A DNA stretch of 60,317 bases from a virus (Duplodnaviria > Caudoviricetes): positions 1 through 60,317 of the IMG/VR virus record IMGVR_UViG_3300050120_000105; one strand, given 5' to 3'. Below are positions 42,950-60,050 of the stretch, in pieces. Under the pieces are notes generated by a model, which was not told the DNA's origin, did no database searches, and saw only the letters and a program-made list of their open reading frames with translations. Within the stretch, counting starts at the first letter, position 1; each line of letters begins with the position of its first letter. The translations under genes were made by a program, and so were the position numbers.

Positions 42950-43105
42950 GAAAAGGGATTCCTATGGGATTCTATCGTTGTTCCCCAAAAACGGGCCGCT
43001 CGCGGGAGGGGGCATGTAACGAGCGGCCCTAAGTCTTGGGAGGAAACGCCCCTGAAGGGAGGCGAGCGACCACGATGGGGACCATGAGCGCCTATCTATA
43101 GACAG

Positions 43106-43144
43106 CAAAAACCCCGCGCGGGCGGGGCTTTCGGGGGTTTTTTG
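43106..43144 (-). terminator. Intrinsic terminator in late-operon leader
   Basis: Minus strand AAGCCCCGC-CCGC-GCGGGGTTTTT, with an alternative pairing partner AAAAACCCC upstream. Confidence 0.65.
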
Positions 43145-43291
43145 TGCAGCCTGCCGTGATGGCGCGCGCCCGCTCAACTACTGCGGCCCTACTCCCCTTC
43201 GGTTGGAATCCCTCTCGGTAGCAAATCTCTCGATTTGCCTGCGCAGGAGCCTCTTTGCCCCTCGCCGAACCGTTGTTACACCGTGACGGTG

Positions 43292-43864
43292 CTATACCGC
43301 TTCGACCTGATCCTCGGATAAATCCAACGGGACCATGCGCCCTAAGAGGTTCACAAGAGCGGTGAGTCGCCGCTTGTTGTCAAGCGAGGCGATGTGAGCC
43401 GTCCACATATCGAACGAGTGGCCCTTGATCCGGACCTCCTGGCCGACATAGAACGCCCGCTTGCGCTGGCCCGGCGGGACGTCGAGCAGCATCTCGAATT
43501 TACGGATTTCGCCCAGCATTTTGGGCCGAACGATGACCGGGGCGCTTTCCTGCCTGACATAGCCGATGATGTCGTCGCTGATCTTCTTCAGGCGCGTCAG
43601 ATCGGCTTCGAAATCCGGGATCAGGATCAGGCCAGAAAAGATCGCCACGGTGCGTTCGCGATAGCGGTTCCAGCCCGTTTTGCGGCTGATCTTCTCCTTC
43701 GGCAGGTAGTTGTCGACGCCGCGCTCGGTCAATTTGGCCTCGACAGCCAGTTCCCGGTTCGGACGCACGCGAAGCAGGTAGTGGTGCTTTGGGACAGGGC
43801 GAACGATGCAGGATGGCGGTTCCATGAATTCGATGAAATCCCCGATATGGTAGAGCGCTGTCAT
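43292..43864 (-). CDS. NusG-paralog antiterminator (NGN + KOW)
   Basis: YLLRVRPNRE, YLPKE, IFSGLI, FYVGQEVRIK..F, VNLLGRMVP. Confidence 0.85.
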   Translation of the reverse strand: MTALYHIGDFIEFMEPPSCIVRPVPKHHYLLRVRPNRELAVEAKLTERGVDNYLPKEKISRKTGWNRYRERTVAIFSGLILIPDFEADLTRLKKISDDIIGYVRQESAPVIVRPKMLGEIRKFEMLLDVPPGQRKRAFYVGQEVRIKGHSFDMWTAHIASLDNKRRLTALVNLLGRMVPLDLSEDQVEAV

Positions 43865-43878
43865 GTTCGGTTGCCCTT

Positions 43879-43911
43879 CTACGCGGCGCGAAGCCGCTAT
43901 GCGTAGCGCTG
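43879..43911 (+). mobile_element. 33-bp palindromic mini-element copy (intergenic)
   Basis: CTACGCGGCGCGAAGCCGCTATGCGTAGCGCTG. Confidence 0.85.
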
Positions 43912-43919
43912 TGGGTGAT

Positions 43920-45089
43920 CTACTTGAAGTCGGCCATGTCCTGTTCGGTCGGTTCGGGTTGTGGCGGGCCGGTGGTGTAGATTTTGCCCTCGACCGACGG
44001 GGGCCACGGCCAGGGGGCGCGAAAGCCAACAGCTAGGGCCGGGCGGGCCCCGAAGACGCTCGCGTTCAAAAGTTCGGTCCAAGCAGCCACCTGCCGATAA
44101 TCCTCAATCGCGACCCATTTCGAGCTGTCGGCGGCGCCCGCAAAGGCTAGGATTTGAGGGGTGATCTCGCCAGGGTAGGTAATTCTGCCCTTGTGTTCGA
44201 AGGGGCGCGCGCGGGTGACGGCGTACAGCGTCGAGATCGCTTTGCCCTCGGGGCTATCGGCCAAAATTCCAGTCACGCCGCCATGCCGCTGCGTTGGATC
44301 CCGCTTGGCAAATTCAGCCCAGGCCGCGGTTTCCTTCAGGAACAGATGCGCGCCGAGCACATTGGGCGGTTTGCGCTGCGCCTTGCGATAGGCGACGTAG
44401 CCGCGGGCGGCCGACCGGGCGAGGTTTTGTTCCTCGGGCTTGAGCGCCGACCAGACTTGCTGCGCCAACGATTGTCGCAGTATCGGCTCTTGCCAGTCTT
44501 TTTCGAAATCCTTCCAACTTTCATCGATCTCGACCGACCCCCCGGAGGGGGGCTGGGGGGATTCTTCAGGTTCAGGTTCAGAAGTTAGGCCACGTACGCA
44601 GTTAGGTGGCTGCTGGGGGGCTAAGTGGGGGGCTAACTGTTCTTCATCCTCAGAATTTGCAACTTTCCTAGGAGAGGGGCTAATTTCAACGCTTTCGGAA
44701 TTAGAATTTCCTTCTACGGCTTCGACTTTGCCTTCTGCGGCGGCCTCGATCACCTCGGGATCGGCGTCGATCATCAGCCGGATTTCGTCGGTCGTGCGAC
44801 GCCCGCGGCCATCTGCATTGCGGCGCCCGTTTTCATCCAGCCATTGAGGCATCCGGACAACGGCCCCGATGCTTTCCAGCCATATCAGCCGGCGCCGGAC
44901 GGTCTCTGGCGCGAATTCGGTATCCTCGGCGAGCTGCGCGAGACTGACGAAACACATACCTTCGCCGTTGACGTAGAGCGTCAGCGTTGAAAGCACGAGC
45001 TTGGCGTAGGGATTGCGCAGCCGAAGGTTACGAGCCCAGGCATGGGCCTCGTCTGCGGCGATACGGCGTTTGCGGCGGGGATTGGTCAA
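43920..45089 (-). CDS. Replication initiator (N-terminal wHTH)
   Basis: AKLVLSTL, CFVSLAQLAEDTE..ETVRRRL..LE; EPEPEE linker. Confidence 0.75.
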   Translation of the reverse strand: MTNPRRKRRIAADEAHAWARNLRLRNPYAKLVLSTLTLYVNGEGMCFVSLAQLAEDTEFAPETVRRRLIWLESIGAVVRMPQWLDENGRRNADGRGRRTTDEIRLMIDADPEVIEAAAEGKVEAVEGNSNSESVEISPSPRKVANSEDEEQLAPHLAPQQPPNCVRGLTSEPEPEESPQPPSGGSVEIDESWKDFEKDWQEPILRQSLAQQVWSALKPEEQNLARSAARGYVAYRKAQRKPPNVLGAHLFLKETAAWAEFAKRDPTQRHGGVTGILADSPEGKAISTLYAVTRARPFEHKGRITYPGEITPQILAFAGAADSSKWVAIEDYRQVAAWTELLNASVFGARPALAVGFRAPWPWPPSVEGKIYTTGPPQPEPTEQDMADFK

Positions 45090-45322
45090 AGCGGATAGTT
45101 CCTCGCGTTATAAGCTACCGCTCGCGCCTGGCCGCTGATACACGGCGGCGTCCCCTCGCCCTCGATCCGGTCCAGGTCGCGCCAGAACTCGACCCAATGC
45201 ACATCGCGCGGTCCGTCCGCTTCATGCCGCGTCACCTTGACGACGCCGCAGCCGTTCTGGCATTCGCGCTCGGTCTTGTGGGGCGAGATGACGTTGCCGT
45301 CTTTGGGCCAGCGGTGTTTCAT
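45086..45322 (-). CDS. small Cys-containing protein, paralog of 45319..45588
   Basis: TERECQNGCGVVKVTRH. Confidence 0.65.
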   Translation of the reverse strand: MKHRWPKDGNVISPHKTERECQNGCGVVKVTRHEADGPRDVHWVEFWRDLDRIEGEGTPPCISGQARAVAYNARNYPL

Positions 45323-45588
45323 GTCTTGCTTCCCGCCCCGACCGGCACGCACGCCGGCGCATCGAACGTCTCGACCTGCACCGCATCCGCCGATCGCCGC
45401 CAGGCCCTTCCGCCGCCGCCTTTCGGATGCAGCGTGACCTTGACCGCGCCGCAGACCTTGCAGGTGCGCTCGGTTTGCGGATAGCCGGAGGCGGACCTTG
45501 CCGCCGGCACCCATACCGGAGACTCGAAGGTGTGCTTCAAGGCCGGCATGTGGAGGACGTAGCCTTCGGGGATGGTGTTCATGTTCAT
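45319..45588 (-). CDS. small Cys-containing protein
   Basis: TERTCKVCGAVKVTLH. Confidence 0.65.
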   Translation of the reverse strand: MNMNTIPEGYVLHMPALKHTFESPVWVPAARSASGYPQTERTCKVCGAVKVTLHPKGGGGRAWRRSADAVQVETFDAPACVPVGAGSKT

Positions 45589-45597
45589 TTGGTTTCG

Positions 45598-46333
45598 GGA
45601 TAGTTCAACTTTGATTCCTCGTTATTAGCATCGGCGGTGTCGGCTAAGTTCCGGATGTTTCGGCTTCGACCTTCGCTTTCGGCTCGGACCGCATGCGTTT
45701 CGCCGCCGCCGCCTCTTCAGCGCGATCGGCTGCGCTCTTGACATGCGACTTGCGGATGCCGTCGATGTCTTCAGTCGGGAAGCGTCCAGTATCGTCGAAG
45801 TCTTCACGCTTGATCGGCTTGATCGTTGGGGCGGGCTCGTCGACTTCCTCCGCAACCGGATTGCCGTCAGTGTCGCGATAGACGCGAACCGGCAAGCCTC
45901 CGAGTTTGAGCACGATCTCGCCATGCGGCGGAACGATGCTTTTGAGAAATTCGACAGCCTCTTCGCGCGCGGCGAGATCGACGGCGAACTTGCCGAGCGC
46001 CATGAACAGCGGCGGTTCTTCGGCCATGCCGATCGCGTGCATATAGGTATCGAGCAGCGCTTCGGCCTGTTGGCGCTTGGCGGGATCTTCCGCACGAAGC
46101 GCGATCAGTTTTCGAATTGTCTTGGTATCGAAGCCGAGGGCCTTGCCGCGCTGGAAGATTTCCTTTTGTTGTTCGCTCAGTTGCTTCTTGCGGTCGATGA
46201 CGCCCTCGATCTCTTCGATCAGGCCGCGCAATTCCTTGCCGCTCTTGGTGCCCTTGCCGATGCTCATAACTTCATCCTTCAGAACTTAGCCGCTGCATTA
46301 CCGTTTCGTCGTGACGCTAAAGTTGTACTGTCC
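45598..46333 (-). mobile_element. Inverted-repeat cassette A (ends 45598-45651 and 46282-46333); cargo GapR-like gene
   Basis: GGATAGTTCAACTT..GGCTAAGTTC / GAACTTAGCC..AAGTTGTACTGTCC. Confidence 0.8.
45644..46267 (-). CDS. GapR/DUF2312-family nucleoid-associated protein with C-terminal extension
   Basis: LRGLIEEIE, KEIF..GK..GFDTKTIRKLIALR, LLDTYMHAIGM. Confidence 0.85.
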   Translation of the reverse strand: MSIGKGTKSGKELRGLIEEIEGVIDRKKQLSEQQKEIFQRGKALGFDTKTIRKLIALRAEDPAKRQQAEALLDTYMHAIGMAEEPPLFMALGKFAVDLAAREEAVEFLKSIVPPHGEIVLKLGGLPVRVYRDTDGNPVAEEVDEPAPTIKPIKREDFDDTGRFPTEDIDGIRKSHVKSAADRAEEAAAAKRMRSEPKAKVEAETSGT

Positions 46334-46344
46334 ATATCTGTCTC

Positions 46345-46563
46345 CTACCGCGGCACGATCTTGTATCCAGCCTGATGCAGCCCATCCAACACAGCCCGCA
46401 CTGGAATGCTGCTTTCGCTTAGCAATCGTCCCGACCAACGATAAGGCACCATCGACAGCGCACACGCGATCACTTCATCCGGATCAAGCAACGGCCCGGC
46501 GCGAGGCTTGCGGGCTTCGAGCGGCATGCGGTCGATGCTGACGGGGAGCGTGGAGGGTTTCAT
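46345..46563 (-). CDS. hypothetical protein
   Basis: Coupled; ends AGYKIVPR. Confidence 0.55.
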   Translation of the reverse strand: MKPSTLPVSIDRMPLEARKPRAGPLLDPDEVIACALSMVPYRWSGRLLSESSIPVRAVLDGLHQAGYKIVPR

Positions 46564-46871
46564 TCGGCGGGCTCCAGCAGATCAGCCATCCCTAGCGATT
46601 CCCGCTTCCGCTGCTTGATGCCACGCCGTCGTATCGGCGCGTCGTATTGATTGTGGCAGCGCTGGCACCACGCACGCAGGTTTTCATCCGAACAATTCTC
46701 GGGGACGTGATCGAGATGCGCGACCGTCAGCACAATCTTTGAACCGTCGCGGATGCTGTAATTCTGGGCTCCGCAATCCTCGCATTTGTTGCCCGCGCGC
46801 GCCCGAATTCGCAGACTGATTTGCTTCCAGTCTTTCGGGTATCGATCCTTATTTTCGGGGCGAATGGGCAT
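46560..46871 (-). CDS. HNH-like endonuclease domain protein
   Basis: CEDCG, VLTVAHLDH.PENC, NL.AWCQRCHN. Confidence 0.8.
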   Translation of the reverse strand: MPIRPENKDRYPKDWKQISLRIRARAGNKCEDCGAQNYSIRDGSKIVLTVAHLDHVPENCSDENLRAWCQRCHNQYDAPIRRRGIKQRKRESLGMADLLEPAE

Positions 46872-47332
46872 TATACAGCCACTCCCGCGCGCATCTTGTC
46901 GAGCGCAGATCGCCCCGGCATAGGATCGCCGAAAAATCCTCCAGTCAGCCCGCGCTCACGGATGCGGTCGCGAAGCTCCTGGTCGAACACCAGCTTCGAT
47001 TTTGGCGTGAGCGCGATATGGCCGGCATAGTCGATCGTGACCGGACACGGCTTTCCCGGCAGCGGCGCCGGTTTCGGCTTTCGCCTGGGGAGATCCTCGA
47101 ATTCGATCATCAGCGCCACTTCGGCCTTGATGGCGAGCCGTCGCGCCTTGCGTTCGTCGACCCGGCGCTGGGTGCGGACTTCCGACATCATCGACTGGCA
47201 GGTCGAGCGCGGATGGCCGACCTTGCTCACGATATCGTCCCACGGGACGCGGCGACCTTCCAGCGAACAGGTGTCCACGGTGTCGGTCATGTATTTGAGC
47301 TGTTCCGCCGTCCATCGGTTTTCGTAACGCAT
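46871..47332 (-). CDS. hypothetical protein, N-terminal Myb/HTH-like
   Basis: RWTAEQ...W..I pattern; FFGDPMPGRSAL tail. Confidence 0.65.
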   Translation of the reverse strand: MRYENRWTAEQLKYMTDTVDTCSLEGRRVPWDDIVSKVGHPRSTCQSMMSEVRTQRRVDERKARRLAIKAEVALMIEFEDLPRRKPKPAPLPGKPCPVTIDYAGHIALTPKSKLVFDQELRDRIRERGLTGGFFGDPMPGRSALDKMRAGVAV

Positions 47333-47386
47333 TTACTTTTCCTTCCCTGTTATTTCGTTACGATCACCGTGCCCGGCGAAGCCTCT

Positions 47387-47419
47387 CTACGCGGCGCGAA
47401 GCCGCTATGCGTAGCGCTG
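47387..47419 (+). mobile_element. 33-bp palindromic mini-element copy that truncates a gene
   Basis: Exact copy; supplies the TAG at 47405-47407. Confidence 0.85.
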
Positions 47420-47704
47420 TGGCGAAGACGGGTCGCGCAGCGCCATCGCGGCGCCATCGACCAGAAAATTCGCCAGTTGGTCTTTTGTGATTTCGAATTC
47501 GAAAAACACGCCGCCAGCCGATTGAACCTTGACCACGAAGGTATTGCGCAGCGGCTCGGTCAGGTAGAACAGCTTTGCCTTCGGGTAGGCGTAAGGCTCA
47601 CGCGGCGCGTGGGCGTTGGTGAGGATGGTCTTATTTGGACAGTTCAACTTTGATTCCTCGTTATGAGCAGCGGCGGTGTCGGCTAAGTTCTTCGTGCCGG
47701 TCAC
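47405..47704 (-). CDS. hypothetical protein altered at both ends by insertions
   Basis: N-terminus reads through the cassette-B end; C-terminus cut by the 33-bp element. Confidence 0.55.
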   Translation of the reverse strand: MTGTKNLADTAAAHNEESKLNCPNKTILTNAHAPREPYAYPKAKLFYLTEPLRNTFVVKVQSAGGVFFEFEITKDQLANFLVDGAAMALRDPSSPQRYA

Positions 47705-48508
47705 AGTTCAAGTGCCTCTTGCTTTGCGGGCTTCGGCGGTTCGATGAACAAGTCAGGTCGCGCCAGCGCGTCGGTGATGCGGCGGCAGGCGATGTCGAAA
47801 TACTTGGGCTCAATCTCGATGCCGATGAACTTTCGGCCGAGCTTGACGGCGGCAACGCCGGTTGTGCCGGATCCCATGAAGGGGTCGAGGATGGTTTCGC
47901 CGGCATCGGAAAAAAGTTCTATCCACTCTCCGATAAGTTCGACCGGCTTTTGTGTGGGATGTTCGCCACGCGGTGACGGATAGGACCAGACAGCGCGCGA
48001 TCCTCCACCGTTCCAGCGTTTTGTTTCGTCTGCTCTATGGAAAATCGCAACGGCTTCCCATCCCGTCGCAGGCCTGTCGCCAGTAAACTGCGGCGCTCCG
48101 TTCGGCTTAACCCAAATTCCAAATCTCACCAGGGGAAGCCCGCTCGCCTCAGCGACTCCGATATGCCGCCAGTCGCATGTTAGGATGACCCACCTCCGCG
48201 CGATCGAAATCATCAACTCACACAATGTCAGAAAGTCTTCGCGGCTTAAGGATTCGAAATGGATACTGGCGACATTGTCCGCACCGCCGTTTTTTCCGAT
48301 ACGAGTTCGCGCGCCCGCATGAGTAACGGCGTCATAAGGCGGATCAGTCACCACGGCATCGACCTTGCCCAGTGTCGGCAGAATCTCCCGGCAGTCGCCG
48401 AGATAAAGCGTCACGCCTTCCGCCAGATGTTCGACACGATTCATTTTCTGCCTTCAGAACTTAGCCGCTGCCTTACCGTTTCGTCGTGACGCTAAAGTTG
48501 TACTATCC
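47637..48508 (-). mobile_element. Inverted-repeat cassette B (ends 47637-47690 and 48457-48508); cargo DNA methylase
   Basis: Both ends ~95% identical to the corresponding ends of cassette A. Confidence 0.8.
47701..48444 (-). CDS. N4/N6 DNA methyltransferase (beta class)
   Basis: VTDPPY, HPTQKP, LDPFMGSGTT. Confidence 0.92.
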   Translation of the reverse strand: MNRVEHLAEGVTLYLGDCREILPTLGKVDAVVTDPPYDAVTHAGARTRIGKNGGADNVASIHFESLSREDFLTLCELMISIARRWVILTCDWRHIGVAEASGLPLVRFGIWVKPNGAPQFTGDRPATGWEAVAIFHRADETKRWNGGGSRAVWSYPSPRGEHPTQKPVELIGEWIELFSDAGETILDPFMGSGTTGVAAVKLGRKFIGIEIEPKYFDIACRRITDALARPDLFIEPPKPAKQEALEL

Positions 48509-48530
48509 ATATCCAACCTAACGGCGAGCA

Positions 48531-48755
48531 TCATTGCGGCCTCCGCATCTTGCAATCGCATAGCCATTCCATGTGGACGACGTACTGATCATGATGCGGC
48601 ATCTGGACTCGCGGCCGAAGGATGATCCAGCCGAGGCGCAGCCAATCCAGGGCCTGCCAGCGCGGCACGTAATGGATGATGCGGTCCTTCACCGAACGAA
48701 CTCTGCTGATGGCGAAATCTCTCGCGCATGTGCGTAGCTTTTTGCGGGAAGCCAT
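48531..48755 (-). CDS. hypothetical protein (start uncertain)
   Basis: ORF in operon. Confidence 0.45.
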   Translation of the reverse strand: MASRKKLRTCARDFAISRVRSVKDRIIHYVPRWQALDWLRLGWIILRPRVQMPHHDQYVVHMEWLCDCKMRRPQ

Positions 48756-48886
48756 TTATTGGACCGATTGAGCGGAATATGCCGCGAAGGTGCGCGCGGT
48801 CGCGATTTGGCGAATGTCGCTTCCGGCCAGCCCTTGATCCGATCGGCGTTGCGTCGCGCTCCGCGATATTCTGATGCGTGTTTCAT
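48689..48886 (-). CDS. hypothetical basic protein
   Basis: ATGA coupling. Confidence 0.45.
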   Translation of the reverse strand: MKHASEYRGARRNADRIKGWPEATFAKSRPRAPSRHIPLNRSNKWLPAKSYAHAREISPSAEFVR

Positions 48887-50010
48887 GCCGCTTCGTCCTC
48901 TGCGTTTGGCTGTGCCTTGCGCACGGGACTCGCCGTGAACCGGATCGCGTCGTCAGGCTTGGAAAGGGCTTCGCGGCAGCCAGGCGGTATCCAGAACGGC
49001 GCCAGTGGCTGGGCTCCCTTCAACCAGACCAGCCACATGTACGCGGTTGCGGTAGATCCCTCCGGGTCCCATCGCCCCTTGCAGAGATTGACGCGCTCGG
49101 CAAAGAACGCGATCAGCGTCGGCGGTGTGTCCTTGAAGATGCGTTCATAGCGACCGATCGAATCGAGCCATTGCACGCGCATGAACATCGCAATGCCGGT
49201 GCCGACCAGATCGAGCGCTTTCAGCACAAAGGCCTCGCCGAGATCGCCGAAGGGCGGGTTGGTGATGATCCAGTCCGCGCCTCGGAGTATTTCGGGACCG
49301 AGGAAGTCGACAACGCGGTCGCCATAACCATAATCGTGAATGTCGGAGGCGATCACCGAGCGGAAATATTCCCGCAACACTTCGGCCATGTGGCCATCGC
49401 CGCATGCCGGTTCCCACGCGTGCTGCCATTTGCAATGGCCGCGACGTTCGAGGTGCGGGAAAACATGTTCGATCAGCGCGCGCGTAGCCCAGGGCGGCGT
49501 CGGGAAGTGGTCTAGGCTGTCGTCGGGTTCCTGCCGTGAGCCCATGACGGCGCGGGCACTGTTGATGGCGGCCTCGCCGATCCGCATCAGATCCATGGTG
49601 ACGCGGGTCTGGCCGGCTTCCATTTCGTCGCGCCACGCGCCGACGCGCGCCTCAAACTCTGCCGGGGGCACCGCAGCCATCTTTTGGGCATGAGCCGAAA
49701 ACTTATGAGAGACGCCGATATCCTCCAGTTTGATCGGAGAAACCCCTTCCGGTTCGGCAGTGGTTTTGGCTGGAGGGCGGCCGCCCTTATGGAGCCCAAT
49801 GGTCTCTTTTTGCGCGGCAATCATCTGGCCGAATCGGCGCTCGGCGTGAAAACGAATCTCGGCGGCGTCGATTTCGAGGCTACGATCACCGGCGCGCCGA
49901 GCGTATTCCTTCATCGCCACGGCCTTGTCGAGGATCGACTTGACGTCGTCGACGGCCTTGGCCTCGGCGAGCATGATGCGGGCTTGATCGTAGGGGACGA
50001 GATCCGTCAT
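48883..50010 (-). CDS. Adenine-type DNA methyltransferase with N-terminal helical/HTH domain
   Basis: DHFPTPPWAT, WEPACGDGHM, IITNPPF. Confidence 0.85.
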   Translation of the reverse strand: MTDLVPYDQARIMLAEAKAVDDVKSILDKAVAMKEYARRAGDRSLEIDAAEIRFHAERRFGQMIAAQKETIGLHKGGRPPAKTTAEPEGVSPIKLEDIGVSHKFSAHAQKMAAVPPAEFEARVGAWRDEMEAGQTRVTMDLMRIGEAAINSARAVMGSRQEPDDSLDHFPTPPWATRALIEHVFPHLERRGHCKWQHAWEPACGDGHMAEVLREYFRSVIASDIHDYGYGDRVVDFLGPEILRGADWIITNPPFGDLGEAFVLKALDLVGTGIAMFMRVQWLDSIGRYERIFKDTPPTLIAFFAERVNLCKGRWDPEGSTATAYMWLVWLKGAQPLAPFWIPPGCREALSKPDDAIRFTASPVRKAQPNAEDEAA

Positions 50011-50036
50011 CTAGCGAACCTCGCGACAGGTCATTT

Positions 50037-50420
50037 TCAGCCGGGAGGCAGCGCCTCCCGATAGATTTCCTTGCCGGGCACCAAATCCCAGATGTTCCGG
50101 CAGAATGGTTCGCCGTGCGTCATGTCCATCAACCACTTCATGGTGACGCCACGATCCCAAAACCACTCGCCGCGCAGATGGCCTTCGCGCAATTGCTGAT
50201 GCACCAGCGGTTCGACATCCGGCGGAGCCGCGACGACCCCAATAAGTTCGAGTTTCCGCGCGCTGCCAACTTGGAGATCGGAAAGCCGGTGCCAATGGTC
50301 GCGTGAGTATCCGACCTTGATCGCGTCGGCCTCCGCATCGCGGATGAAGTAAACTGAGCCGAGTTCGGTTTCCGCGATCCAGAATTCTCGCAGAGAGACC
50401 AATCGAGTACGCAGGAACAT
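50037..50420 (-). CDS. GIY-YIG-like (T5orf172/Mug113) domain protein
   Basis: VYFI, IKVGYS, RLSDLQ, E..VH, GEWF. Confidence 0.75.
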   Translation of the reverse strand: MFLRTRLVSLREFWIAETELGSVYFIRDAEADAIKVGYSRDHWHRLSDLQVGSARKLELIGVVAAPPDVEPLVHQQLREGHLRGEWFWDRGVTMKWLMDMTHGEPFCRNIWDLVPGKEIYREALPPG

Positions 50421-50742
50421 AACACCCTCGCTGGCTGGCGATACAATCTAAGCGTTTAGCACAGAATGCGGCGATCTTCATGATTAAGGTTGCACTCATA
50501 GGTTTGCACTCGCTCGGGATAAGAACCGTTCGACGACGCACGCAAAACTCATTTACCGGGGACGCAACACAACGCGCAGAAACCGCTCAAAAAAAGCAGT
50601 CAGAAAGGACGTGAGGACCTTCGAAACCGGACGACGTTGGTCGCTTCGGACCGGCGATCGGCCCTGGTGCGCAGCACGTAGCGCAGCGCAAAGTAGGCGA
50701 TGGCGAGGATGGTGAAGGCGGCATAGCCGTAAAGGATCGTGG

Positions 50743-51045
50743 TCATGCGGCCTCCGCGAAACGCTCTGAGGCTTCAAGAATCGACTGGATCAAGCGCCAG
50801 CCGCTTTCAGATGGTCTAAAGAACGGCCCGCGCGGAGATTCTCCGGGCACTTTCCTGTTCCAGATTTCGATCAGTTCACGCCGCCACAGCGGCACCACTG
50901 CGCGGCGCGAAGCCGCTATGCGCAGCGCCGTTGCCTCTCGCTGATCGCGAGTCAGGGTAATCTGACCGCCATTGGAGCAGCAGATCGCGAGATGTTTCAA
51001 TGTCGCGATCTGCCGGTTTGAGAGACGTTCGCCTTTCACAGGCAT
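50743..51045 (-). CDS. hypothetical protein with in-frame 33-bp element
   Basis: Contains TALRIAASRRAV derived from the element. Confidence 0.65.
   Translation of the reverse strand: MPVKGERLSNRQIATLKHLAICCSNGGQITLTRDQREATALRIAASRRAVVPLWRRELIEIWNRKVPGESPRGPFFRPSESGWRLIQSILEASERFAEAA
50898..50930 (+). mobile_element. 33-bp palindromic mini-element copy (in-frame insertion)
   Basis: CTGCGCGGCGCGAAGCCGCTATGCGCAGCGCCG. Confidence 0.85.
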
Positions 51046-51602
51046 TCTCCGATAATTTCACGCTTGAGGGCGGCAACCTTGTCTTCGTCCGTTTGAACCT
51101 CGCCGATCAATGCAACCAGCCACCAGCGTTCGCCTTTCCATTTCGGCGGAATGAACGTCGCGTGCAGACCTTGCGCGGTGCAGATCCGCAGCGGTCCCTT
51201 GATGGTTTCGATGGTGCCCGGGCCAACGGGATCGTTCTTTCCACCATTCGCCGCGCGACCATTCTTGTCGGAACGCCAGAAGGCAATCATCGCGCCTTCT
51301 TGCTGCAGCTCCGCAAAACGCTTTTGCTGTTGCTCTGGCATCTTCCTTGCAAAATTCGGAATCGTGGCCAACCAATATTCCTTGGAGCCGGAGCCGTAGC
51401 CGTAGCCGGAGCCGTCGCCGGAGCCGGAGCCGGAGCCGGAGCCGTCGCCGGAGCCGTAGCCGTCGCCGGAGCCGTAGCCGTAGCCGTAGCCGGAGCCGGA
51501 GCCGTAGCCGTAGCCGGAGCCGTCGCCGGAGCCGGAGCCGTCGCCGGAGCCGTTCAAAAATGAGTGCGGGACTTCGCCCCGCACGAGTCTCGCTTCGCTC
51601 AT
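51036..51602 (-). CDS. Gly-(Ser/Tyr/Asp) repeat protein
   Basis: ATG 51602 coupled; GSGDGSGYGYG tract. Confidence 0.75.
   Translation of the reverse strand: MSEARLVRGEVPHSFLNGSGDGSGSGDGSGYGYGSGSGYGYGYGSGDGYGSGDGSGSGSGSGDGSGYGYGSGSKEYWLATIPNFARKMPEQQQKRFAELQQEGAMIAFWRSDKNGRAANGGKNDPVGPGTIETIKGPLRICTAQGLHATFIPPKWKGERWWLVALIGEVQTDEDKVAALKREIIGECL
51383..51552. repeat. Hexamer microsatellite (GGCTCC/GGCTAC/GGCGAC on minus strand)
   Basis: ~28 tandem 6-bp units. Confidence 0.9.
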
Positions 51603-51925
51603 TTCCATGGTGCGCTTTCCCATGCTGCGACAGCGGCAGTCGTGACCTCGGCAACCGAGGTAATGTCGCGAAGCTCGATATCGGCGGCCGGCCCGACGCG
51701 CGCGCCTTTGACCGGCCCCATGTTGGCGAGGCCCATGAAGCCCTTGTTTTCTGCCGGCCAATAGATGCAGTTACGCGCCGCGCGAAGCTTGATGGTCTCA
51801 CCGTCGGTATCGAGGGCGTAACCAAAGAACACGCCTCTGTGACTTGTTGTAACTAGAACTGCCCTCTCTTCTTTCTTCAAATGTGCCGCCAAGTGTTCCT
51901 CCCGTTTGATTAAAGATGAGCCCAT
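51599..51925 (-). CDS. Conserved phage protein (DUF6948-like), usual partner of GYG-repeat proteins
   Basis: VLVTTSHRGVFFG, ARNCIYW, GLA..GP. Confidence 0.7.
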   Translation of the reverse strand: MGSSLIKREEHLAAHLKKEERAVLVTTSHRGVFFGYALDTDGETIKLRAARNCIYWPAENKGFMGLANMGPVKGARVGPAADIELRDITSVAEVTTAAVAAWESAPWK

Positions 51926-52539
51926 GCTCTCCGTGCCCGGATCGCAGAGACGGTTTCCATGCTGATCAAGTATTGTGAAGCGATTTCGCGACGCGTCCGC
52001 TTGTCAGACCTGATGGCCACGACCTGTTCAGGCTGCAGTTTTGCGGTATGAACGCGCTCACCTCTGTTGTGACGATCCTTCGCAATGCAATCGCGATTGT
52101 TGTCGACCCTGGTACCGGCAAAGAGATGGCTTGGCCGACAACAGGCTGGGTTATCGCAGGAGTGACAGGCGCAGAGACCTGCGGCCAACTTCCCTCTTGT
52201 GATTAGATATGCGGCCTGATGCGCTTGCCGTGGAAATCCTTTCTCAGAATAGCGTGCGTAGCCATCCTTTGAGCGAGCCGAAGGATATTCCCAACAACCG
52301 GCCTTGCCAGCTTGATCAAGTAAAAACGCAGCCATTCTCGGATGGCGACGACCATAACAGCCGCAGGATTTGGTGTGCCCGCTCCGTAGACCGGACGTAA
52401 GGGCAATCACCACTACCGCGCCGCAGTCGCATAGACATTTCCAGCGCTGCTGTGCGTGGACGTTTGAATCTAGCCGCTCAATTACGAGCAATCGTGCAAA
52501 ACGCTGCCCTACAAGATCAAACCGCTGCCCGCTGGTCAT
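51910..52539 (-). CDS. HNH homing endonuclease
   Basis: WKCLCDCG, TKSCGC, CWEY, CHSCDNPACCRPSHL..GT..DN. Confidence 0.85.
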   Translation of the reverse strand: MTSGQRFDLVGQRFARLLVIERLDSNVHAQQRWKCLCDCGAVVVIALTSGLRSGHTKSCGCYGRRHPRMAAFLLDQAGKAGCWEYPSARSKDGYARYSEKGFPRQAHQAAYLITRGKLAAGLCACHSCDNPACCRPSHLFAGTRVDNNRDCIAKDRHNRGERVHTAKLQPEQVVAIRSDKRTRREIASQYLISMETVSAIRARRAWAHL

Positions 52540-52548
52540 GCGGCGCTC

Positions 52549-52827
52549 CTATCGTCGGTCAGGCAGCCAAAGATTGATGACGGCTTGGATAGTGCGCGCG
52601 GTAGGCTCCTGCTCGCCTGAAATCTGATAAGCGGCGGCGCGTACCGAGCAACCGACAAGGGCCGCGAGTTCTTCTGCGGTTTTGTTCGGCCACATCCCTT
52701 TGCAAGCTTTACCGAACCACGAACTGCAAATTCTTGCATCGCCCTGCAGGATGTTTCGCTCGATTTTCGCGGCGCCCGCGATCTCGCGCTCGTAAACCGT
52801 ACGCATGAACAAACCCCTGATACGCAA
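52549..52827 (-). CDS. CII-like HTH regulator
   Basis: WPNKTAEELAALVGCSVRAA..QISGE; downstream of cro. Confidence 0.55.
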   Translation of the reverse strand: MRIRGLFMRTVYEREIAGAAKIERNILQGDARICSSWFGKACKGMWPNKTAEELAALVGCSVRAAAYQISGEQEPTARTIQAVINLWLPDRR

Positions 52828-52957
52828 TGCAACAAATCAACTGCCGTTAACCCAACTGAGAGAAAAATTTTCCGTGACACGAAACCGCCATACGGACCAT
52901 GCTGCGGCAAAACGCGCAGGGGGCGGAAATGGGGAAGATTATTCGATTTCCGGGGCA

Positions 52958-53170
52958 TCAGGCGCGCACCTCGGTTTCCAGGGGATACAAATCGGGGCGC
53001 AGTTCATGCCTGGAGACGCCGGAGACGCGCTCGACCACCAGCACGCGAAGCGGAGGAACCTCATTCCATTGTGAAACGGCCTGCGCAGTCACACCGACGG
53101 CCCGCGCAAACTTGGCCTGGCCGCCGACATTTTCGACCGCTCGTTTGAGGGCTTCTTTCTTGTCATCCAT
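52958..53170 (-). CDS. cro: Cro-like (YdaS family) repressor
   Basis: GGQAKFARAVGVTAQAVSQW, VSRHELRPDLY. Confidence 0.88.
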   Translation of the reverse strand: MDDKKEALKRAVENVGGQAKFARAVGVTAQAVSQWNEVPPLRVLVVERVSGVSRHELRPDLYPLETEVRA

Positions 53171-53181
53171 AGTCGTCACCT

Positions 53182-53243
53182 CAAGCATGGCTTTTACCTC
53201 AAAGTCAAGTTTTGCTTCATTGTTTGCCTAAAGCCGGGCTTTA
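53182..53243. promoter_or_regulatory. Three putative operators AAG(C/T)-N3-GCTT between cro and cI
   Basis: CAAGCATGGCTTT 53182, CAAGTTTTGCTTC 53206, TAAAGCCGGGCTTTA 53229; TATAAT at 53242. Confidence 0.7.
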
Positions 53244-53253
53244 TAATGCGGAA

Positions 53254-53574
53254 ATGACTTTAGGAAATCGCATCAAGGCGGCCCGCGAGCGCCTTCGGCC
53301 AAAGCCGACTCAGGCCGAGATAGGTGCCCACTTCGGCGTCACCGACAAAGCTGTCTCCGGGTGGGAACGAGACGAGGCAATCCCGGAACTGGATAAGATC
53401 GCTAAGTTGTCGAGATTACTCAGGATTCCAGTTATTTGGCTGCTCGAAGGGACGGACGATCCACCTCCCCCCGATTCGCTGGAAAAGGACATCGAACAGC
53501 TCCAGCCCCATGAACGCGCCGTGGTGCGCACCATGGTCGACGCTTTCAGCAAAAACCGGGATACCGTCGCCTAA
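53254..53574 (+). CDS. cI: CI-like XRE repressor without peptidase domain
   Basis: LGNRIKAAR, TQAEIG..FGVTDKAVSGWE; divergent from cro; probably leaderless ATG. Confidence 0.85.
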   Translation: MTLGNRIKAARERLRPKPTQAEIGAHFGVTDKAVSGWERDEAIPELDKIAKLSRLLRIPVIWLLEGTDDPPPPDSLEKDIEQLQPHERAVVRTMVDAFSKNRDTVA

Positions 53575-53612
53575 TCCACAGCTTTCGTGGCCGGCCAGAT
53601 ATTTTTTGATAT

Positions 53613-53638
53613 TTGACTAAAGCAACAAGCTATGCTTG
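53613..53638 (+). promoter_or_regulatory. Early rightward promoter/operator
   Basis: TTGACT followed by palindrome CAAGCTATGCTTG. Confidence 0.6.
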
Positions 53639-53671
53639 AGTGCTCCCACACCAACAGGGAGCCGCCACCCC

Positions 53672-53998
53672 ATGACAACCACCTTCCAGACAGAACCCCG
53701 CCCTTCCCCGCTCTACCTCGTCCTCTGTGGCCAGCACATCGACGAATACGCAGCCGAGCGCGACGTCAACGACATGGATCGCGAGACAACGATCCGCGAT
53801 ATCGCAGCCGGCGAATTCGAAACGCTCTCGCGCGTGATCGAGATCGGCACCGGCGCCGATGTCACCAAGGACTTCGCCAGACAGGTCATGACGATCTGGG
53901 CTGGGCGAGGCGAGACGCTTTCTTACCGTCAATATGAATTCGTCGAGATCCACGTCGGTACGCGCGCGGCGCGGTCGTTTCTGCGGAGGGCTGCGTGA
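53672..53998 (+). CDS. hypothetical protein
   Basis: GGGAG RBS, ATG 53672. Confidence 0.65.
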   Translation: MTTTFQTEPRPSPLYLVLCGQHIDEYAAERDVNDMDRETTIRDIAAGEFETLSRVIEIGTGADVTKDFARQVMTIWAGRGETLSYRQYEFVEIHVGTRAARSFLRRAA

Positions 53999-54255
53999 TG
54001 GTCGCGATCGGCGGAAAGCCTCGCAAGGCAAAGCTTCCCTCGCAGCCGCAAGTCGTCGTGCAGCGCGCCGCTTTCACCAACGAATTCGCGCTGTTCAGTG
54101 CCGACGACAAAGGCATGACGATCATCACATGGATCGGCGACCCGAACGCCGCGACCAAATTCAATTCGAAATATGAAGCCAAATCCCGCGTGCGCGACAT
54201 GCATGACGTTCCGGACTCGCGCGTGTTCAAGGTTTTGCAGAAGGAGACTGTGTGA
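53995..54255 (+). CDS. hypothetical protein
   Basis: Coupled ORF. Confidence 0.6.
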   Translation: MMVAIGGKPRKAKLPSQPQVVVQRAAFTNEFALFSADDKGMTIITWIGDPNAATKFNSKYEAKSRVRDMHDVPDSRVFKVLQKETV

Positions 54256-55034
54256 TGATGATGTTAGACCGCGCTGAAATCCCCGCAACCGACCGCCTTG
54301 TCAGCACTGCCGACAACCAGCCCTCGCGCATCGACTTCGCCGTCGAAGCCTATGACGAACTGCGCACGTACCTGAAATCGCATCCCGTTGTTATGAGCCA
54401 GGACGATGCCCAGGCCGGCGCCGCCGTAAACGAGCGCACGCTTGTCGCTTTGAACGAAGCCCGCGCCGAACGCGAGACCAAAACCCGCCCGTTCCGCGAC
54501 CGGCTGAATGCGATCTTCGATGCCTACGCGCTGGTCAAGGACAAGGGCACGCTGGAAACCGCCCGCGGCGAGCTGCGCAAGCGGCTGACAAAATACGCCA
54601 ACGATATCGAGGCCAAGCGCATCGCCGAGGTCGAGCGGTTGCGCAAGGAAGCCGAAGAAGCCGAACGGATTGCCCGCGAAGCCGAAGCCGCCGAACGCGA
54701 GGCGATCGACGATGCCGAACAGGGCGTCGAGAGCGACGTCGGCGAGGCAATCCAGCAGGCGGATCAGGCGTTCACGGACTTCCGGCGCGCGGACAAGACG
54801 GCTGCGATCGCCGCCAAGAACGTGCCGGTGCGGTTCAAGAGCGTGCTGGGAGGCAATTCGCGCGGCATGCGGACGGTCGAGGTTTTGGTGATCGAGGATG
54901 TCGCCAAGGTGATCAGGATTTTAGGGATGACCGACAAGATCAGGGACGCGATTTTGTCCAGCGCCCGCGACTACCGCCGCGAATACGACGAGCTTCCCGC
55001 CGGCATCACCGCAACCTTTGAGAGGACTTTGTAA
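54252..55034 (+). CDS. Coiled-coil early protein (recombination-region)
   Basis: AAGGAG RBS; long EAR-rich helix; LPAGI tail. Confidence 0.7.
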   Translation: MMMMLDRAEIPATDRLVSTADNQPSRIDFAVEAYDELRTYLKSHPVVMSQDDAQAGAAVNERTLVALNEARAERETKTRPFRDRLNAIFDAYALVKDKGTLETARGELRKRLTKYANDIEAKRIAEVERLRKEAEEAERIAREAEAAEREAIDDAEQGVESDVGEAIQQADQAFTDFRRADKTAAIAAKNVPVRFKSVLGGNSRGMRTVEVLVIEDVAKVIRILGMTDKIRDAILSSARDYRREYDELPAGITATFERTL

Positions 55035-55529
55035 ATGAACACGTCAGCAGCACTTCAACAGCCGCGCTTTGAGCAAGGCACCATCACCGTCCAGAACATC
55101 TATCCCTCGAAAGGCCAAGGCAAGTCGGCCCACATCAAGGATTCGGACGGTATGTTGTTCGGTATCTGGCCGGACAAGCTTGGCCTCGTCCAGGTCGGAG
55201 GAACTTACGAGATCGAGTTTTCCGCCAGCACCAAGAACGGCACCACGTACCGCGATATCAAGCAACTGCACATGGTGGAAAAGCCGCAGCCGCAGCCGGC
55301 GCGTTCATTGTCGTCGGCCGCGGCGCCGGCGCCGCAGACAGAGAAGCCGCAGAACGGCGGATACTACCGGCCGACAGCGCCGCAGGATTCCGAGCGCATG
55401 TTCTGCTGCAGTACGCTCAACGCCTTCATCCAGACCGGCCGCGTTGAATGTCATCGCGAGCATCTGACGATAGCGATCAACGAGCTGCGCGCGGCCTATG
55501 CGGCGACGTTCGGCGCCGACGACCACTGA
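55035..55529 (+). CDS. Possible ssDNA-binding OB-fold protein
   Basis: Beta-rich N-terminus, P/Q linker, acidic end. Confidence 0.5.
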   Translation: MNTSAALQQPRFEQGTITVQNIYPSKGQGKSAHIKDSDGMLFGIWPDKLGLVQVGGTYEIEFSASTKNGTTYRDIKQLHMVEKPQPQPARSLSSAAAPAPQTEKPQNGGYYRPTAPQDSERMFCCSTLNAFIQTGRVECHREHLTIAINELRAAYAATFGADDH

Positions 55530-55639
55530 CACCCGTTACCTCGCCAAAGGCGTAGCGGCTCCATGGCGAGGGAGGCGGCGGCGGGTTTTTAAGCATCCTC
55601 GTCGCCGCCAACTAATTCAAAGGCATCACAGGGGACACC

Positions 55640-55834
55640 ATGAACATCCAACTCAAACCGGAAACCCGCCGTTTCATCGAGGATTTTGTCGCGCACGAAA
55701 TCACCACGCTGACCGCACTCGATCCGTTCGGCATCGACGATCCCTGCCCGGGAAGCCCGGACGGCCATTACCAGTTGTGGGACGGGCCGCGCACGCTGGT
55801 ATGCGCGCATTGCGCGAAGGTGCTGTGGTCATGA
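55640..55834 (+). CDS. small Zn-finger-like protein
   Basis: CPGSPDGH...CAHC. Confidence 0.6.
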   Translation: MNIQLKPETRRFIEDFVAHEITTLTALDPFGIDDPCPGSPDGHYQLWDGPRTLVCAHCAKVLWS

Positions 55835-56064
55835 ACTCCTTCCTGATCGACGGCCCGCTGATGTCCACCTTCGATCGCCGCAAGGCGATGATCGAGCGCA
55901 TGGCGAAAGACCTGGTCAAATTCGACGCCGCGCAGAACGAAGCCGACGCGATCCGATCGCTGATGGCGCGGGGCTACTCGCCGTTCGCCGTGCTGCGCTA
56001 TGTCGACGATGCGCGGCAGGTGGCGTTCCAGAGCATTGTTGCGAGGGAGATGGCGAAGTCGTGA
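55831..56064 (+). CDS. hypothetical protein
   Basis: ATGA coupling at 55831. Confidence 0.65.
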   Translation: MNSFLIDGPLMSTFDRRKAMIERMAKDLVKFDAAQNEADAIRSLMARGYSPFAVLRYVDDARQVAFQSIVAREMAKS

Positions 56065-56152
56065 GGCCAGAGGGATGGATAGTACAACTTGAGCGTCACG
56101 GTTTAAACACCAGCGCAGCGGCTAAGTTCGATCCGCAGCTAGGAGCTACAAG

Positions 56153-56329
56153 ATGGGAAAGCGCGCGTTGATCGACATCGCCGGCGAACTCAAAGGCGAG
56201 ACCGACAAAGCTTTTCGAATTTTCGACGGCAAAACGACTGAATGGGTGCCGAAGTCGCAAGTCGAGCAGAACCCTGACGGCACTTTCACAATGCCAGAAT
56301 GGCTGGCACAGGATAAAGGATTCATCTGA
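56153..56329 (+). CDS. Small conserved phage protein (58 aa, not in ORF track)
   Basis: AGGAG RBS; ETDKA...WVPKSQ...MPEWLA.DKG. Confidence 0.75.
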   Translation: MGKRALIDIAGELKGETDKAFRIFDGKTTEWVPKSQVEQNPDGTFTMPEWLAQDKGFI

Positions 56330-56574
56330 TGGCACACGTTTACGAAGGACAACCGGATGGCCGGCAGGCCGACACGGCGATTGAAGTCAGCCGCTTTCGC
56401 CCGAAGTATCGAGCGTTGAGCAACGAAGAAAAGTCGCTGCACGACGCAATCAAGGACGAAGCCGCCGTGCTCGAAACCTTGTTCGCCAAGGTCAAGCCAG
56501 GTCGCTACAACTCGCTAGCAATCACGTCGCTCGAACAGTCAATTATGTGGATCGTCAAGGAATTGACGTCGTAA
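56329..56574 (+). CDS. Acb2/Tad1-like cyclic-nucleotide sponge (anti-CBASS candidate)
   Basis: YRALSNEE...K...E.L...PGRYNSLAITSLEQSIMW resembles the Acb2 pattern YRDLSQEE...PGRW..GKT.IQ.GMM. Confidence 0.7.
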   Translation: MAHVYEGQPDGRQADTAIEVSRFRPKYRALSNEEKSLHDAIKDEAAVLETLFAKVKPGRYNSLAITSLEQSIMWIVKELTS

Positions 56575-56657
56575 CCAAACGCGGCGCTTAGAACTTAGCC
56601 GCTGAGTCGGTGAAGCGTCGTCGCGTTTGAGTTGTACTATCCAAATCGGACTTCCAA

Positions 56658-57094
56658 TGATCAGACCGCAACGCATCGTTCACGATTCGAAACCCGGCGA
56701 TTTACTCAAACGCGCGACCGCGCCGACCGCGACAGCGCGAACCTCCGACCATGGAGATGCCGATTATTTGGCCCTTATCAGGCAAATGCCCTGCCTTTCC
56801 TGCGGCATGGAACTGTCTGAGGCCGCTCACCTACGTCTTTCAAGTGCAGCGTATGGCAAGGCGAGCGGCCTCGGGAAGAAGCCTCATGACAAGTGGGCGC
56901 TTTCATTATGCAGCCAATGCCATCGCCTGGCGAAAACAGCCCAACATAACCGCAACGAAGCCGAGTTTTGGGCAAGCCTGGGCATCAATCCCCTCAGTTG
57001 CGCCGTTGAACTTTATGCGGCGCGCGGCGATCCGGTCTCGATGCGGATGATCGTCGTGCTGACGATTGCGACGCGTTGGAAACGGGATGGATAG
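56658..57094 (+). CDS. DUF968/HNH-like Zn-binding protein
   Basis: YLALIRQMPCLSCG, EAAHL, KPHD..ALSLC..CH, QH; stop codon supplied by cassette D end. Confidence 0.75.
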
Positions 57095-57473
57095 TACAAC
57101 TTGAGCGTGAGTGACTGAGTATCGGCGATAGAGGCTAAGTTCGGAAGACAGCAAAAAGGAAACGACACGATGAAAATGACGTTACAGAGCACGACCAAGA
57201 TCGTCGAATTGAGATCACGCAGTGGTGGGGTGATGCAGGCCAGGATATGGGAGGGCACAACCGAGAATGGTGTGCCGGTCCACGCCTTCATCACACGGGT
57301 CGCGTGCCACAAGGATGAGGATAACAGCGAGCTTGAGCGCGACCTTCGCGAGCACGTCGCGCCATCCGATAATATTGGCAAAGCCTATGATTTACGCTTC
57401 TTCATCGACTAGCCGGAGGACGAACTTAGCCGCTCAGTCAGTGCAGCGTCGTGTCGGTAAAGTTGAACTATCC
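57089..57473 (+). mobile_element. Inverted-repeat cassette D (ends 57089-57142 and 57422-57473)
   Basis: GGATAGTACAACTT..GGCTAAGTTC / GAACTTAGCC..AAGTTGAACTATCC. Confidence 0.8.
57170..57412 (+). CDS. hypothetical protein (cargo of cassette D)
   Basis: AAGGA RBS; ARIWEG.T..GVPVHAFITRV. Confidence 0.7.
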   Translation: MKMTLQSTTKIVELRSRSGGVMQARIWEGTTENGVPVHAFITRVACHKDEDNSELERDLREHVAPSDNIGKAYDLRFFID

Positions 57474-57579
57474 AAATGAACGCATGTGGATTGTTTAGTT
57501 TGTGCGCAGGGAAAAACTGGAATCGACGTAAAATGATGGATGTACTTTTGAACACGCGCCCGGAGCGCTGAACCGCTAG

Positions 57580-57636
57580 ATGTCGGCTTACTACAACGAG
57601 ATCGATCCCACGGGAGAGAAACGCCATGAGCACTAG
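57580..57636 (+). pseudogene. 5' remnant of a phage cytosine methylase gene
   Basis: Encodes MSAYYNEIDP, then diverges and stops. Confidence 0.55.
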
Positions 57637-57940
57637 CACGCCAACACCTTGGAGAGTTTTCACGACAACGGATGGCCGCAAGCTGGTCGGGATCGGCGCC
57701 GATGACGGTCAGGGAATCCTCGATTGCGGTTTCGGCGTTTGGGCATGGAATGATGCTGAAGGCATCGCCAACGCAGATCTGGTCGTCAAGGCCGTGAATA
57801 ATCACGACGCGCTGGTCAGGTGTCTTGAAGGTATCCGCGACCAACGATGGAATGAAGACGCTGATTTGGATGACATCTGCAACACGGCTGAGCAAGCGCT
57901 ACGCGCTCTTGTGGCAGGACCGAAGGCAGGAAAGCCATGA
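57626..57940 (+). CDS. hypothetical protein
   Basis: TPTPW...ANADLVVKAVNNHDALV, a common phage accessory motif. Confidence 0.7.
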   Translation: MSTSTPTPWRVFTTTDGRKLVGIGADDGQGILDCGFGVWAWNDAEGIANADLVVKAVNNHDALVRCLEGIRDQRWNEDADLDDICNTAEQALRALVAGPKAGKP

Positions 57941-58860: not shown

Positions 58861-59069
58861 ATTTACCCGATATCGAAGTTGTCAGCGCTAAGGTTCACGA
58901 GTCTTGGATGGATTCAAAACGCAAGGCTGGCGTGACTTCTCGCAAACTGGAAACCGGCGAAGAACTAATGGTGCCGTATGACGATCTTTCAGAGGAAGCT
59001 AAGGAATTGGATCGCGTAGCTGTCCGCACCATCTATTCCGCAATTTACTCGACGGTCATGGCGATATGA
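58857..59069 (+). CDS. Stand-alone RyR-repeat-like domain protein
   Basis: VHESWM..K..AG...LMVPYDDLSEEAKELDR. Confidence 0.65.
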   Translation: MNLPDIEVVSAKVHESWMDSKRKAGVTSRKLETGEELMVPYDDLSEEAKELDRVAVRTIYSAIYSTVMAI

Positions 59070-59413: not shown

Positions 59414-59652
59414 GCGAACCAAGAAAGAAATTTGTCGGACAGCCGAAGCCCGTCGCATTCAACGTCGATGACACCGCTGAGGTCTATCGGCTGCTGAGCG
59501 AGTGCTGGGGCTATCTCAGGATGTGCCACCACAAACACGGTACGGATTGGGAAGGTCGCCAGTTTGCTATGAATGCTCTTGAAGAATTGCAGAAGCGTGA
59601 CTGGAAACTTGTTCCATCCCCGCCCAGCGCCAATGAGGGGAGCGCAGCATGA
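59410..59652 (+). CDS. hypothetical protein
   Basis: Coupled; flanked by 24-bp direct repeat. Confidence 0.65.
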   Translation: MSEPRKKFVGQPKPVAFNVDDTAEVYRLLSECWGYLRMCHHKHGTDWEGRQFAMNALEELQKRDWKLVPSPPSANEGSAA

Positions 59653-60047: not shown

Positions 60048-60050
60048 CAA

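Follow-up and report, generated by a model that had tools for sequence, protein, structure and literature searches.

What brings near-identical stretches of DNA to both sides of unrelated genes in a phage genome, and what do these stretches do there? Accessory and counter-defense genes of phages turn over fast, and mechanisms that move single genes from one phage to another, unrelated one are known for few systems, the promoter-early stem-loop (PeSL) cassettes being one. The question is raised here by a tailed phage (Caudoviricetes), IMG/VR virus record IMGVR_UViG_3300050120_000105, the whole of which was analyzed (the window: 60,317 nucleotides (nt), 60.3 kb, rated complete). It contains four small promoter-less gene cassettes (A to D), each bounded by a pair of ~52-nt inverted arms. 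The reading that we favor, with a probability of about one half, is that the cassettes are plug-in modules for accessory genes that are exchanged by recombination, functionally similar to the PeSL cassettes of T4-type phages but built differently.

Four cassettes with related ends and unrelated cargo

Cassettes A (45598-46333, minus strand, 736 nt) and B (47637-48508, minus strand, 872 nt) were each recovered by repeat comparison, by a search for the conserved boxes of the arms, and by a sequence-only model (R1) built from an alignment of 20 arms. The original prediction, made from the letters of the window alone, had described these two as carrying different genes between near-identical ends, and this proved accurate. 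Their upstream ends, or 5' arms (46282-46333 and 48457-48508, minus strand), differ at 2 of 52 nt, a likeness found in none of 100 shuffles, and the repeat really extends over 68 nt at 94% identity (46271-46338 and 48446-48513). Their downstream ends, or 3' arms (45598-45651 and 47637-47690, minus strand), differ at 3 positions and are 94% identical across 54 nt. The enclosed genes are unrelated: cassette A encodes a 207-amino-acid protein with a GapR-like N-terminal domain (45644-46267, minus strand; PF10073, E 1.7e-20), the stop codon of which is a TAG within the 3' arm, and cassette B encodes a 247-amino-acid N6/N4 DNA methyltransferase (47701-48444, minus strand; PF01555, E 6e-29).

What the prediction had missed is that there are two further cassettes and that the two ends of any one cassette are themselves related, being imperfect inverted repeats of a single ~52-nt arm family. 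The box search located eight arms in the window (the reversed-pattern control gave none), and model R1 found the same eight and no extra copy. Cassettes C and D were identified by both methods. Cassette C (56077-56642, plus strand, 566 nt; 5' arm 56077-56129, 3' arm 56591-56642) holds two genes, one for a 58-amino-acid protein with no assigned function (56153-56329, plus strand) and one for an 81-amino-acid protein with an Acb2/Tad1 hairpin domain (56329-56574, plus strand; PF24729, E 7e-13, 49 bits against a cut-off of 27). Cassette D (57089-57473, plus strand, 385 nt; 5' arm 57089-57142, 3' arm 57422-57473) holds one gene for an 80-amino-acid protein (57170-57412, plus strand) that has no domain match and is placed by the Atlas in viral hypothetical clusters only. 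Comparison with PDB sequences by phmmer gave nothing for the Acb2-like protein and a match at only E 0.95 for the cassette D protein.

The leftward early/replication operon houses cassettes A and B, and the rightward early operon cassettes C and D, so that the arms occur in early operons on both sides of a cI/Cro-like gene pair. The cassettes of the window point the same way as the neighboring genes. We make no such claim for the family as a whole, because the longest-open-reading-frame test of flank orientation miscalled flanks that have annotated genes and is unreliable in such GC-rich DNA.

Gene replacement with breakpoints at the arms

Cassettes from other phages support the suggestion, drawn in the original prediction from A and B, that cargo is swapped between conserved ends. 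At one locus, represented by G005, L161, and L157, three unrelated cargos lie between highly similar flanks and arms (93-94% between G005 and L161, 80-83% between G005 and L157), and the homology ends exactly at the inner-box edges of the arms. L161 has its 5'-arm end and the adjoining cargo in common with L149a. Cassette b of G003 and the cassette of G407 likewise have 93-94% identical arms and different cargo. In both sets, the breakpoints of gene replacement are at the arms. Relatedly, L147 matches the window's cassette C locus in gene order, with a cassette between a homologue of the gene that ends at 56064 and a DUF968 gene; the flanking genes are 40% and 53% identical at the amino acid level to those of the window and the cargo is not in common. 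Thus, near-identical arms are found with unrelated cargo, and a given version of the ends is not tied to one gene.

Whole cassettes also come and go. Two relatives are without cassette D, and in each what is missing matches the cassette to within a few bases. In one, a contig of run X5, position 57082 is joined to 57481 with 11 other letters between them; in the other, metagenome contig L155, a DUF968 gene (65% amino acid identity) is followed directly by the sequence found after cassette D in the window. The boundaries of this presence/absence difference fall within ~7 nt of the arm ends, and neither D-empty site has an arm remnant or a clean target duplication. An abutting target-site duplication was likewise seen in none of 19 cassettes examined. 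Non-abutting direct repeats of 11, 13, and 17 nt occur near three of the 19; repeats of at least 10 nt were found in only 0.3% of 328 non-partner controls. In L128 (700-1160), the start of the gene downstream of the cassette is present twice: its 5' coding end recurs just upstream of the cassette (17 nt exactly, within a longer imperfect duplication), which leaves the cassette flanked by one partial and one full copy of that gene start.

The 25 cargo proteins have no pairwise similarity (blastp, E≤1e-3) and are thus mutually unrelated; just three match a Pfam family, none of these being a transposase, and none of the 20 from other contigs reaches the Pfam cut-off. Homologues of some cargo proteins occur in other phages outside any cassette. 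The cargo of the L064 cassette, a 174-amino-acid protein with a DPPY motif, has a homologue (61.5% amino acid identity) in L156 (1366-1638), downstream of the DUF968 gene and with no detectable arm before it, so that the same gene is found inside and outside cassettes.

Anatomy and polarity of the arms

Each arm comprises an outer box, a variable center, and an inner box. The outer box reads GGAYAGTWCAACTT on the coding strand (it is also given as GGATAnnnCAACTT) and the inner box is GGCTAAGTTC; an alignment of 20 arms has 16 invariant columns. Primary sequence, rather than structure, is conserved, and the outer box of many arms contains a short palindrome around CAACTTG. Alignments of 19 5' arms and 21 3' arms distinguish the two as versions of one family. 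In cassette b of G003 and the cassette of G407, the 5' arm is reduced to its inner ~17 nt.

Between its 5' arm and its 3' arm, a cassette has first a purine-rich ribosome-binding tract and then one or two small genes. The first cargo gene starts 7-28 nt past the 5' arm in all 21 complete cassettes. Its reading direction relative to the arm types is also identical in 21 of 21, i.e., the polarity of the element is fixed. At the other end, the cargo stop codon lies within the 3' arm in 12 of the 21, ten of which use the TAG of the inner box and consequently encode proteins ending in ..RT or ..GT.

The outer edge of the 5' arm has features of its own. Read from the sequence, its outer box holds stop codons in two frames, and in 10 of the 19 5' arms there is a start codon across this edge. 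The upstream open reading frame (uORF) that begins there has 5 codons in six arms, 18 in two, and 23 and 27 in two others. Both 18-codon examples belong to the window (46279-46335 in cassette A and 48454-48510 in cassette B, minus strand), just as the original prediction had translated them; the 'leader' of cassettes C and D has only 5 codons. Since the 18-codon form is confined to A and B, it is a local variant, and the proposed relay of translation through a leader peptide has no support as a feature of the family. A Shine-Dalgarno (SD)-like 4-mer lies just upstream of 12 of the 19 5' arms, compared to 13.6% of background windows, which makes a translational role of the outer edge possible. 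A tiny uORF or an SD-like tract at this edge is thus common.

Distribution of the arm family

The first pattern used against IMG/VR was too loose, giving 117 stretches of which only ~4 had the full motif. A gapped pattern gave seven stretches in six IMG/VR records, 24 metagenome stretches, and two genome contigs. Model R1 confirmed arms in all six of these other viral records (the same six that a further pattern, designed around the 3' arm, retrieved) and scored strongly in 17 of the 24 metagenome loci, which are on soil and peat contigs; the runs that contain the window are likewise peat metagenomes. The two genome-contig matches, the total from a scan of species-representative genomes, were a prophage of Bradyrhizobium sp. 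URHD0069 (L128, the same as L142), the sole isolate-borne copy found, and a metagenome-assembled genome of Clostridia, which is probably a chance hit. Altogether, complete convergent arm pairs define 21 cassettes of 306-872 nt. The arms are convergent wherever both ends are visible; single arms occur at contig ends or have no detectable partner in the available upstream sequence (L155, L156, L158).

The arm is otherwise rare in the records and genomes searched. It was not detected in 50,697 GenBank phage records, save for one 20-nt chance hit, nor in 72,556 PLSDB plasmid records. Among 401 genomes of the Bradyrhizobium family, one (G006) is a real carrier and 11 others gave three-mismatch hits at a frequency comparable to the control; a search of 61 genomes of the genus for the outer box alone gave two, which is near the control rate. 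The window has no close annotated relative among GenBank phages, the best match covering 5% of the query at 70.8% identity. The phages that carry arms also have little in common with each other: no protein family is common to at least four of the five larger cassette-bearing genomes, in a comparison that used the first 60,000 of the 60,605 nt of G004.

Neighboring genes and other features of the window

A DUF968/HNH-type nuclease gene (56657-57094, plus strand) lies exactly between the 3' arm of cassette C and the 5' arm of cassette D, and its stop codon is the TAG of the cassette D outer box. A gene of this type immediately adjoins an arm in the window, L147, L155, and L156; in L064 and L126, it lies within 0.5-0.8 kb of one. 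This adjacency is at least partly synteny; in the protein-family comparison, the DUF968/HNH gene was not among the families common to G004, G005, or G407.

The block between cassettes A and B (46345-47704, minus strand) has open reading frames (ORFs) of 72, 103, 153, and 99 amino acids, the second of which encodes an HNH endonuclease (phrog_1571). Judging from the layout, this is the block that would be deleted were the like-oriented arms of A and B to recombine; such a deletion, raised in the original prediction, is plausible for arms that are 96% identical.

Nuclease-type genes recur in the early region, at 46560-46871 (HNH, minus strand), 50037-50420 (T5orf172/GIY-YIG-like, minus strand), and in the DUF968/HNH gene, and two methyltransferase-like genes besides the cassette B methylase are at 48883-50010 and 742-1488. 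An exonuclease-like gene occupies 54252-55034. A NusG-like gene (43292-43855, minus strand; NGN domain, PF02357) lies beside a replication-initiator-like gene (43920-45089) and is possibly a phage-specific antiterminator. The 1525-amino-acid ORF at 3991-8568 (minus strand) has no PHROG match at E≤0.001.

Two kinds of repeat are separate from the arms. A 42-nt family has copies at 43873-43914, 47381-47422, and 50892-50933 (83-100% identity, ~3.5 kb spacing) with an internal G+C-rich palindrome; two of the three copies are intergenic, and contigs of run X1 break there. A long imperfect tandem array of 6-, 12-, and 18-nt units (51363-51584) within the ORF at 51036-51761 encodes a Gly/Ser/Tyr/Asp-rich repeat protein, and reads of run X1 are apparently cut there. 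Two further X5 contigs, both of low depth, differ from the window: one joins 43912, in a 42-nt repeat, to 56075, 2 nt before the cassette C 5' arm, on opposite strands, and the other skips 56349-56479 within the Acb2-like gene. Beyond their cassettes, the related phages G003 (L127) and G407 (L130) have several other intergenic segments of 40-64 nt that are 90-98% identical with non-homologous genes between them, and the position of G003 cassette a is taken in G407 by 1.7 kb of different, arm-free DNA.

Alternative roles for the arms

The main rival to exchange by homologous recombination is that the cassettes are transposon-like or site-specific elements, in the style of mobile insertion cassettes or pdif modules, and that an enzyme supplied in trans, by the host or by another element, acts on the bipartite inverted arms to move or exchange whole cassettes. 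The terminal inverted-repeat architecture, with two boxes conserved in all arms and 16 invariant columns among 20 of them, is what such an enzyme would call for, as are the use of one arm family at either end and the occurrence of arms in phages that have no protein family common to at least four of five. The boundaries of cassette D within ~7 nt of the arm ends and the cargo replacements that end exactly at the inner boxes fit equally well. Set against this are the lack of abutting target duplications in 19 cassettes and the constant orientation of cargo relative to arm type in 21. Nor did a candidate enzyme come to light in the window: matches to the tyrosine recombinase/integron integrase family PF00589 were zero (the control was positive in 14 of 14 genomes), as were those to serine recombinase PF00239, rve PF00665, and DDE_Tnp_1 PF01609. 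Finally, the host genomes searched (species-representative, 401 of the family, and 61 of the genus) contained no autonomous or multicopy insertion sequence with the same ends. We therefore consider an element of this type a tentative possibility. Stated in its fullest form, the arms might, with the odds against it, be recognition sites of a dedicated exchange machinery, host-encoded or spread across phage proteins, which would make them the phage counterpart of integron cassettes or pdif modules and would maintain a pool of single-gene cassettes, enriched in counter-defense genes, among otherwise unrelated Bradyrhizobium-type soil phages.

In a second alternative, a regulator of host or phage origin binds the arms and brackets the early accessory genes, silencing or looping them, for example; cargo exchange would then be a by-product of the conservation of the arms. 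The conservation of primary sequence rather than structure, the outer-box palindrome, and the placement of arms in early operons flanking the cI/Cro-like pair are consistent with this. Yet no regulator gene common to the five phages was found, R1 detects no operator-like copy in the window beyond the eight arms, and none of the three sigma-70-type promoter-like sites in 45000-58000 overlaps an arm. The same region has only one weak terminator-like site within an arm. A regulatory site is thus unlikely to be the explanation.

Less probable again is a role at the RNA level, in which the arms pair in the operon transcript and loop out the cargo, as an RNase III site, a stabilizer, or a split ribosome-binding site. 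In every cassette, the boxes could indeed form ~14 and 10-14 base pairs, and the sense strand of cassette C pairs almost fully when G-U pairs are allowed (-67 versus -56 kcal/mol). This preference is not general: cofolding of 21 cassettes showed no strand bias for a long-range arm-arm helix (sense -43.8 versus antisense -44.3, Wilcoxon p 0.86) and no partner specificity (own partner -43.8 versus non-partner -45.6, p 0.26). Differences in the outer-box triplet and the inner-box GTAC/GTTC are not compensated in the partner arm, and Rfam has nothing at the arms (E≤1, region 43000-60317). A hairpin within the arm was likewise rejected, the RNAalifold consensus being empty on both strands for 19 5' arms and 21 3' arms. 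The split-site idea, in which an SD sequence before the 5' arm would serve a start codon after the 3' arm, was dropped because several downstream genes have an SD-like tract of their own. The RNA-level model, then, has little support, and so does the most improbable of the alternatives, that the cassettes are phase-variable segments flipped between their inverted arms; a whole gene flanked by inverted repeats would suit inversion, but the window has no invertase (PF00239 and PF00589 are absent) and the cargo of all 21 cassettes has the same orientation with respect to the centers of the 5'- and 3'-type arms.

How cassettes may be exchanged

If the cassettes are exchangeable accessory-gene modules, as we favor, the arms would act as standard adapters. 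The 5' arm would present stop codons to incoming reading frames and position the cargo start, and the 3' arm would supply the stop codons that many cargo genes use, so that the arms may insulate the inserted gene from its neighbors in translation. The likeness of the arms that is maintained between phages would allow one cargo to be replaced with another, by a double crossover within the arms, when two phages co-infect a cell or a phage encounters a prophage. We infer homologous recombination, of phage or host origin, to be the agent of exchange. Entry into new sites would be rarer, and would probably proceed through intermediates, either circular or linear, that use short homologies to integrate, which would explain both the direct repeats near some cassettes and the lack of abutting duplications.

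Several observations weigh against exchange by homologous recombination. By itself, it does not explain why ~80%-identical arms occur in phages that share almost no genes, nor why inverted copies of one family stand at both ends; the center of the L149b 5' arm resembles those of the 3' arms of L147 and of cassette C of the window (W_C). In their conservation and their 25-30-nt spacing, the boxes have the look of sites recognized by a protein. The insulating or translational role of the arms is read from the sequence only. The X5 joint at the cassette D site comes from one contig at a depth of 2.3, with a shorter side of 36 letters and 85% likeness. Last, the assembled contigs of four runs, in which rare variants are invisible, showed neither an intermediate of recombination nor a circle nor an A-B deletion.

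Significance and comparison with known systems

In soil phages of a host group that matters to agriculture, the arms give exchangeable genes a boundary that is defined by sequence. As a searchable signature, they have so far led to 25 distinct cargo genes, including those for a methylase and an Acb2/Tad1-like protein. The cassettes are also a natural system in which to study non-polar insertion of genes into operons, and the arms are candidate landing pads for phage engineering. Were a dedicated exchange machinery to exist, the arm sequence could serve as bait to harvest new anti-defense genes. The literature searched has no description of an inverted-arm cassette of this type, and by that standard the element is an undescribed variety of exchangeable gene cassette, with points of resemblance to five known systems.

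Morons are phage accessory genes that have their own promoter and terminator. Like them, the cassettes add accessory genes between the genes of phage operons; unlike them, they have no promoter or terminator signal of their own and have standard arms in common.

Integron gene cassettes are promoter-less and mostly single-gene, have diverse cargo, and are recognized through attC, a single 3' hairpin site; attC sites have reportedly been found on phages (PMC9892861). The present cassettes are similar in that the gene starts near the 5' boundary and often stops within the boundary element. They differ in that the arms are on both sides and inverted, no conserved hairpin is found on either strand, and the window has no integron integrase.

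Mobile insertion cassettes and MITEs (miniature inverted-repeat transposable elements) have terminal inverted repeats and no transposase, and can carry a passenger gene. MITEs are reported to occur in viral genomes (PMC11602168). The arms share with these elements the terminal inverted repeats, the passenger gene, and the lack of an internal transposase, but not the abutting target duplication, nor a cognate or multicopy insertion sequence in the genomes searched; fixed orientation and translational fit set the cassettes further apart. The pdif modules of Acinetobacter plasmids are bounded by 28-bp sites for XerC/XerD. Inverted bracketing sites, unrelated backbones, varied cargo, and the lack of a recombinase within the module are common to both; the arms, for their part, are ~52 nt long and have two boxes.

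The functional parallel that we favor is with the promoter-early stem-loop cassettes of T4-type phages (Arbiol et al. 2010, PMC2839356; Comeau et al. 2014, PMC4122927). By published description, PeSLs consist of promoters that are strong and sigma-70-like and of terminator stem-loops (PMC2839356). Measured against that description, the arms overlap no promoter-like site and lack a consensus structure, come as inverted pairs in which the 5' and 3' members differ, and belong to another group of phages and hosts. What PeSLs and the arms have in common is that they are short conserved intergenic motifs around non-essential ORFan genes in plastic phage regions; recombination between such motifs replaces, deletes, or inserts the enclosed genes in the T4-type phages, and would do the same between the arms.

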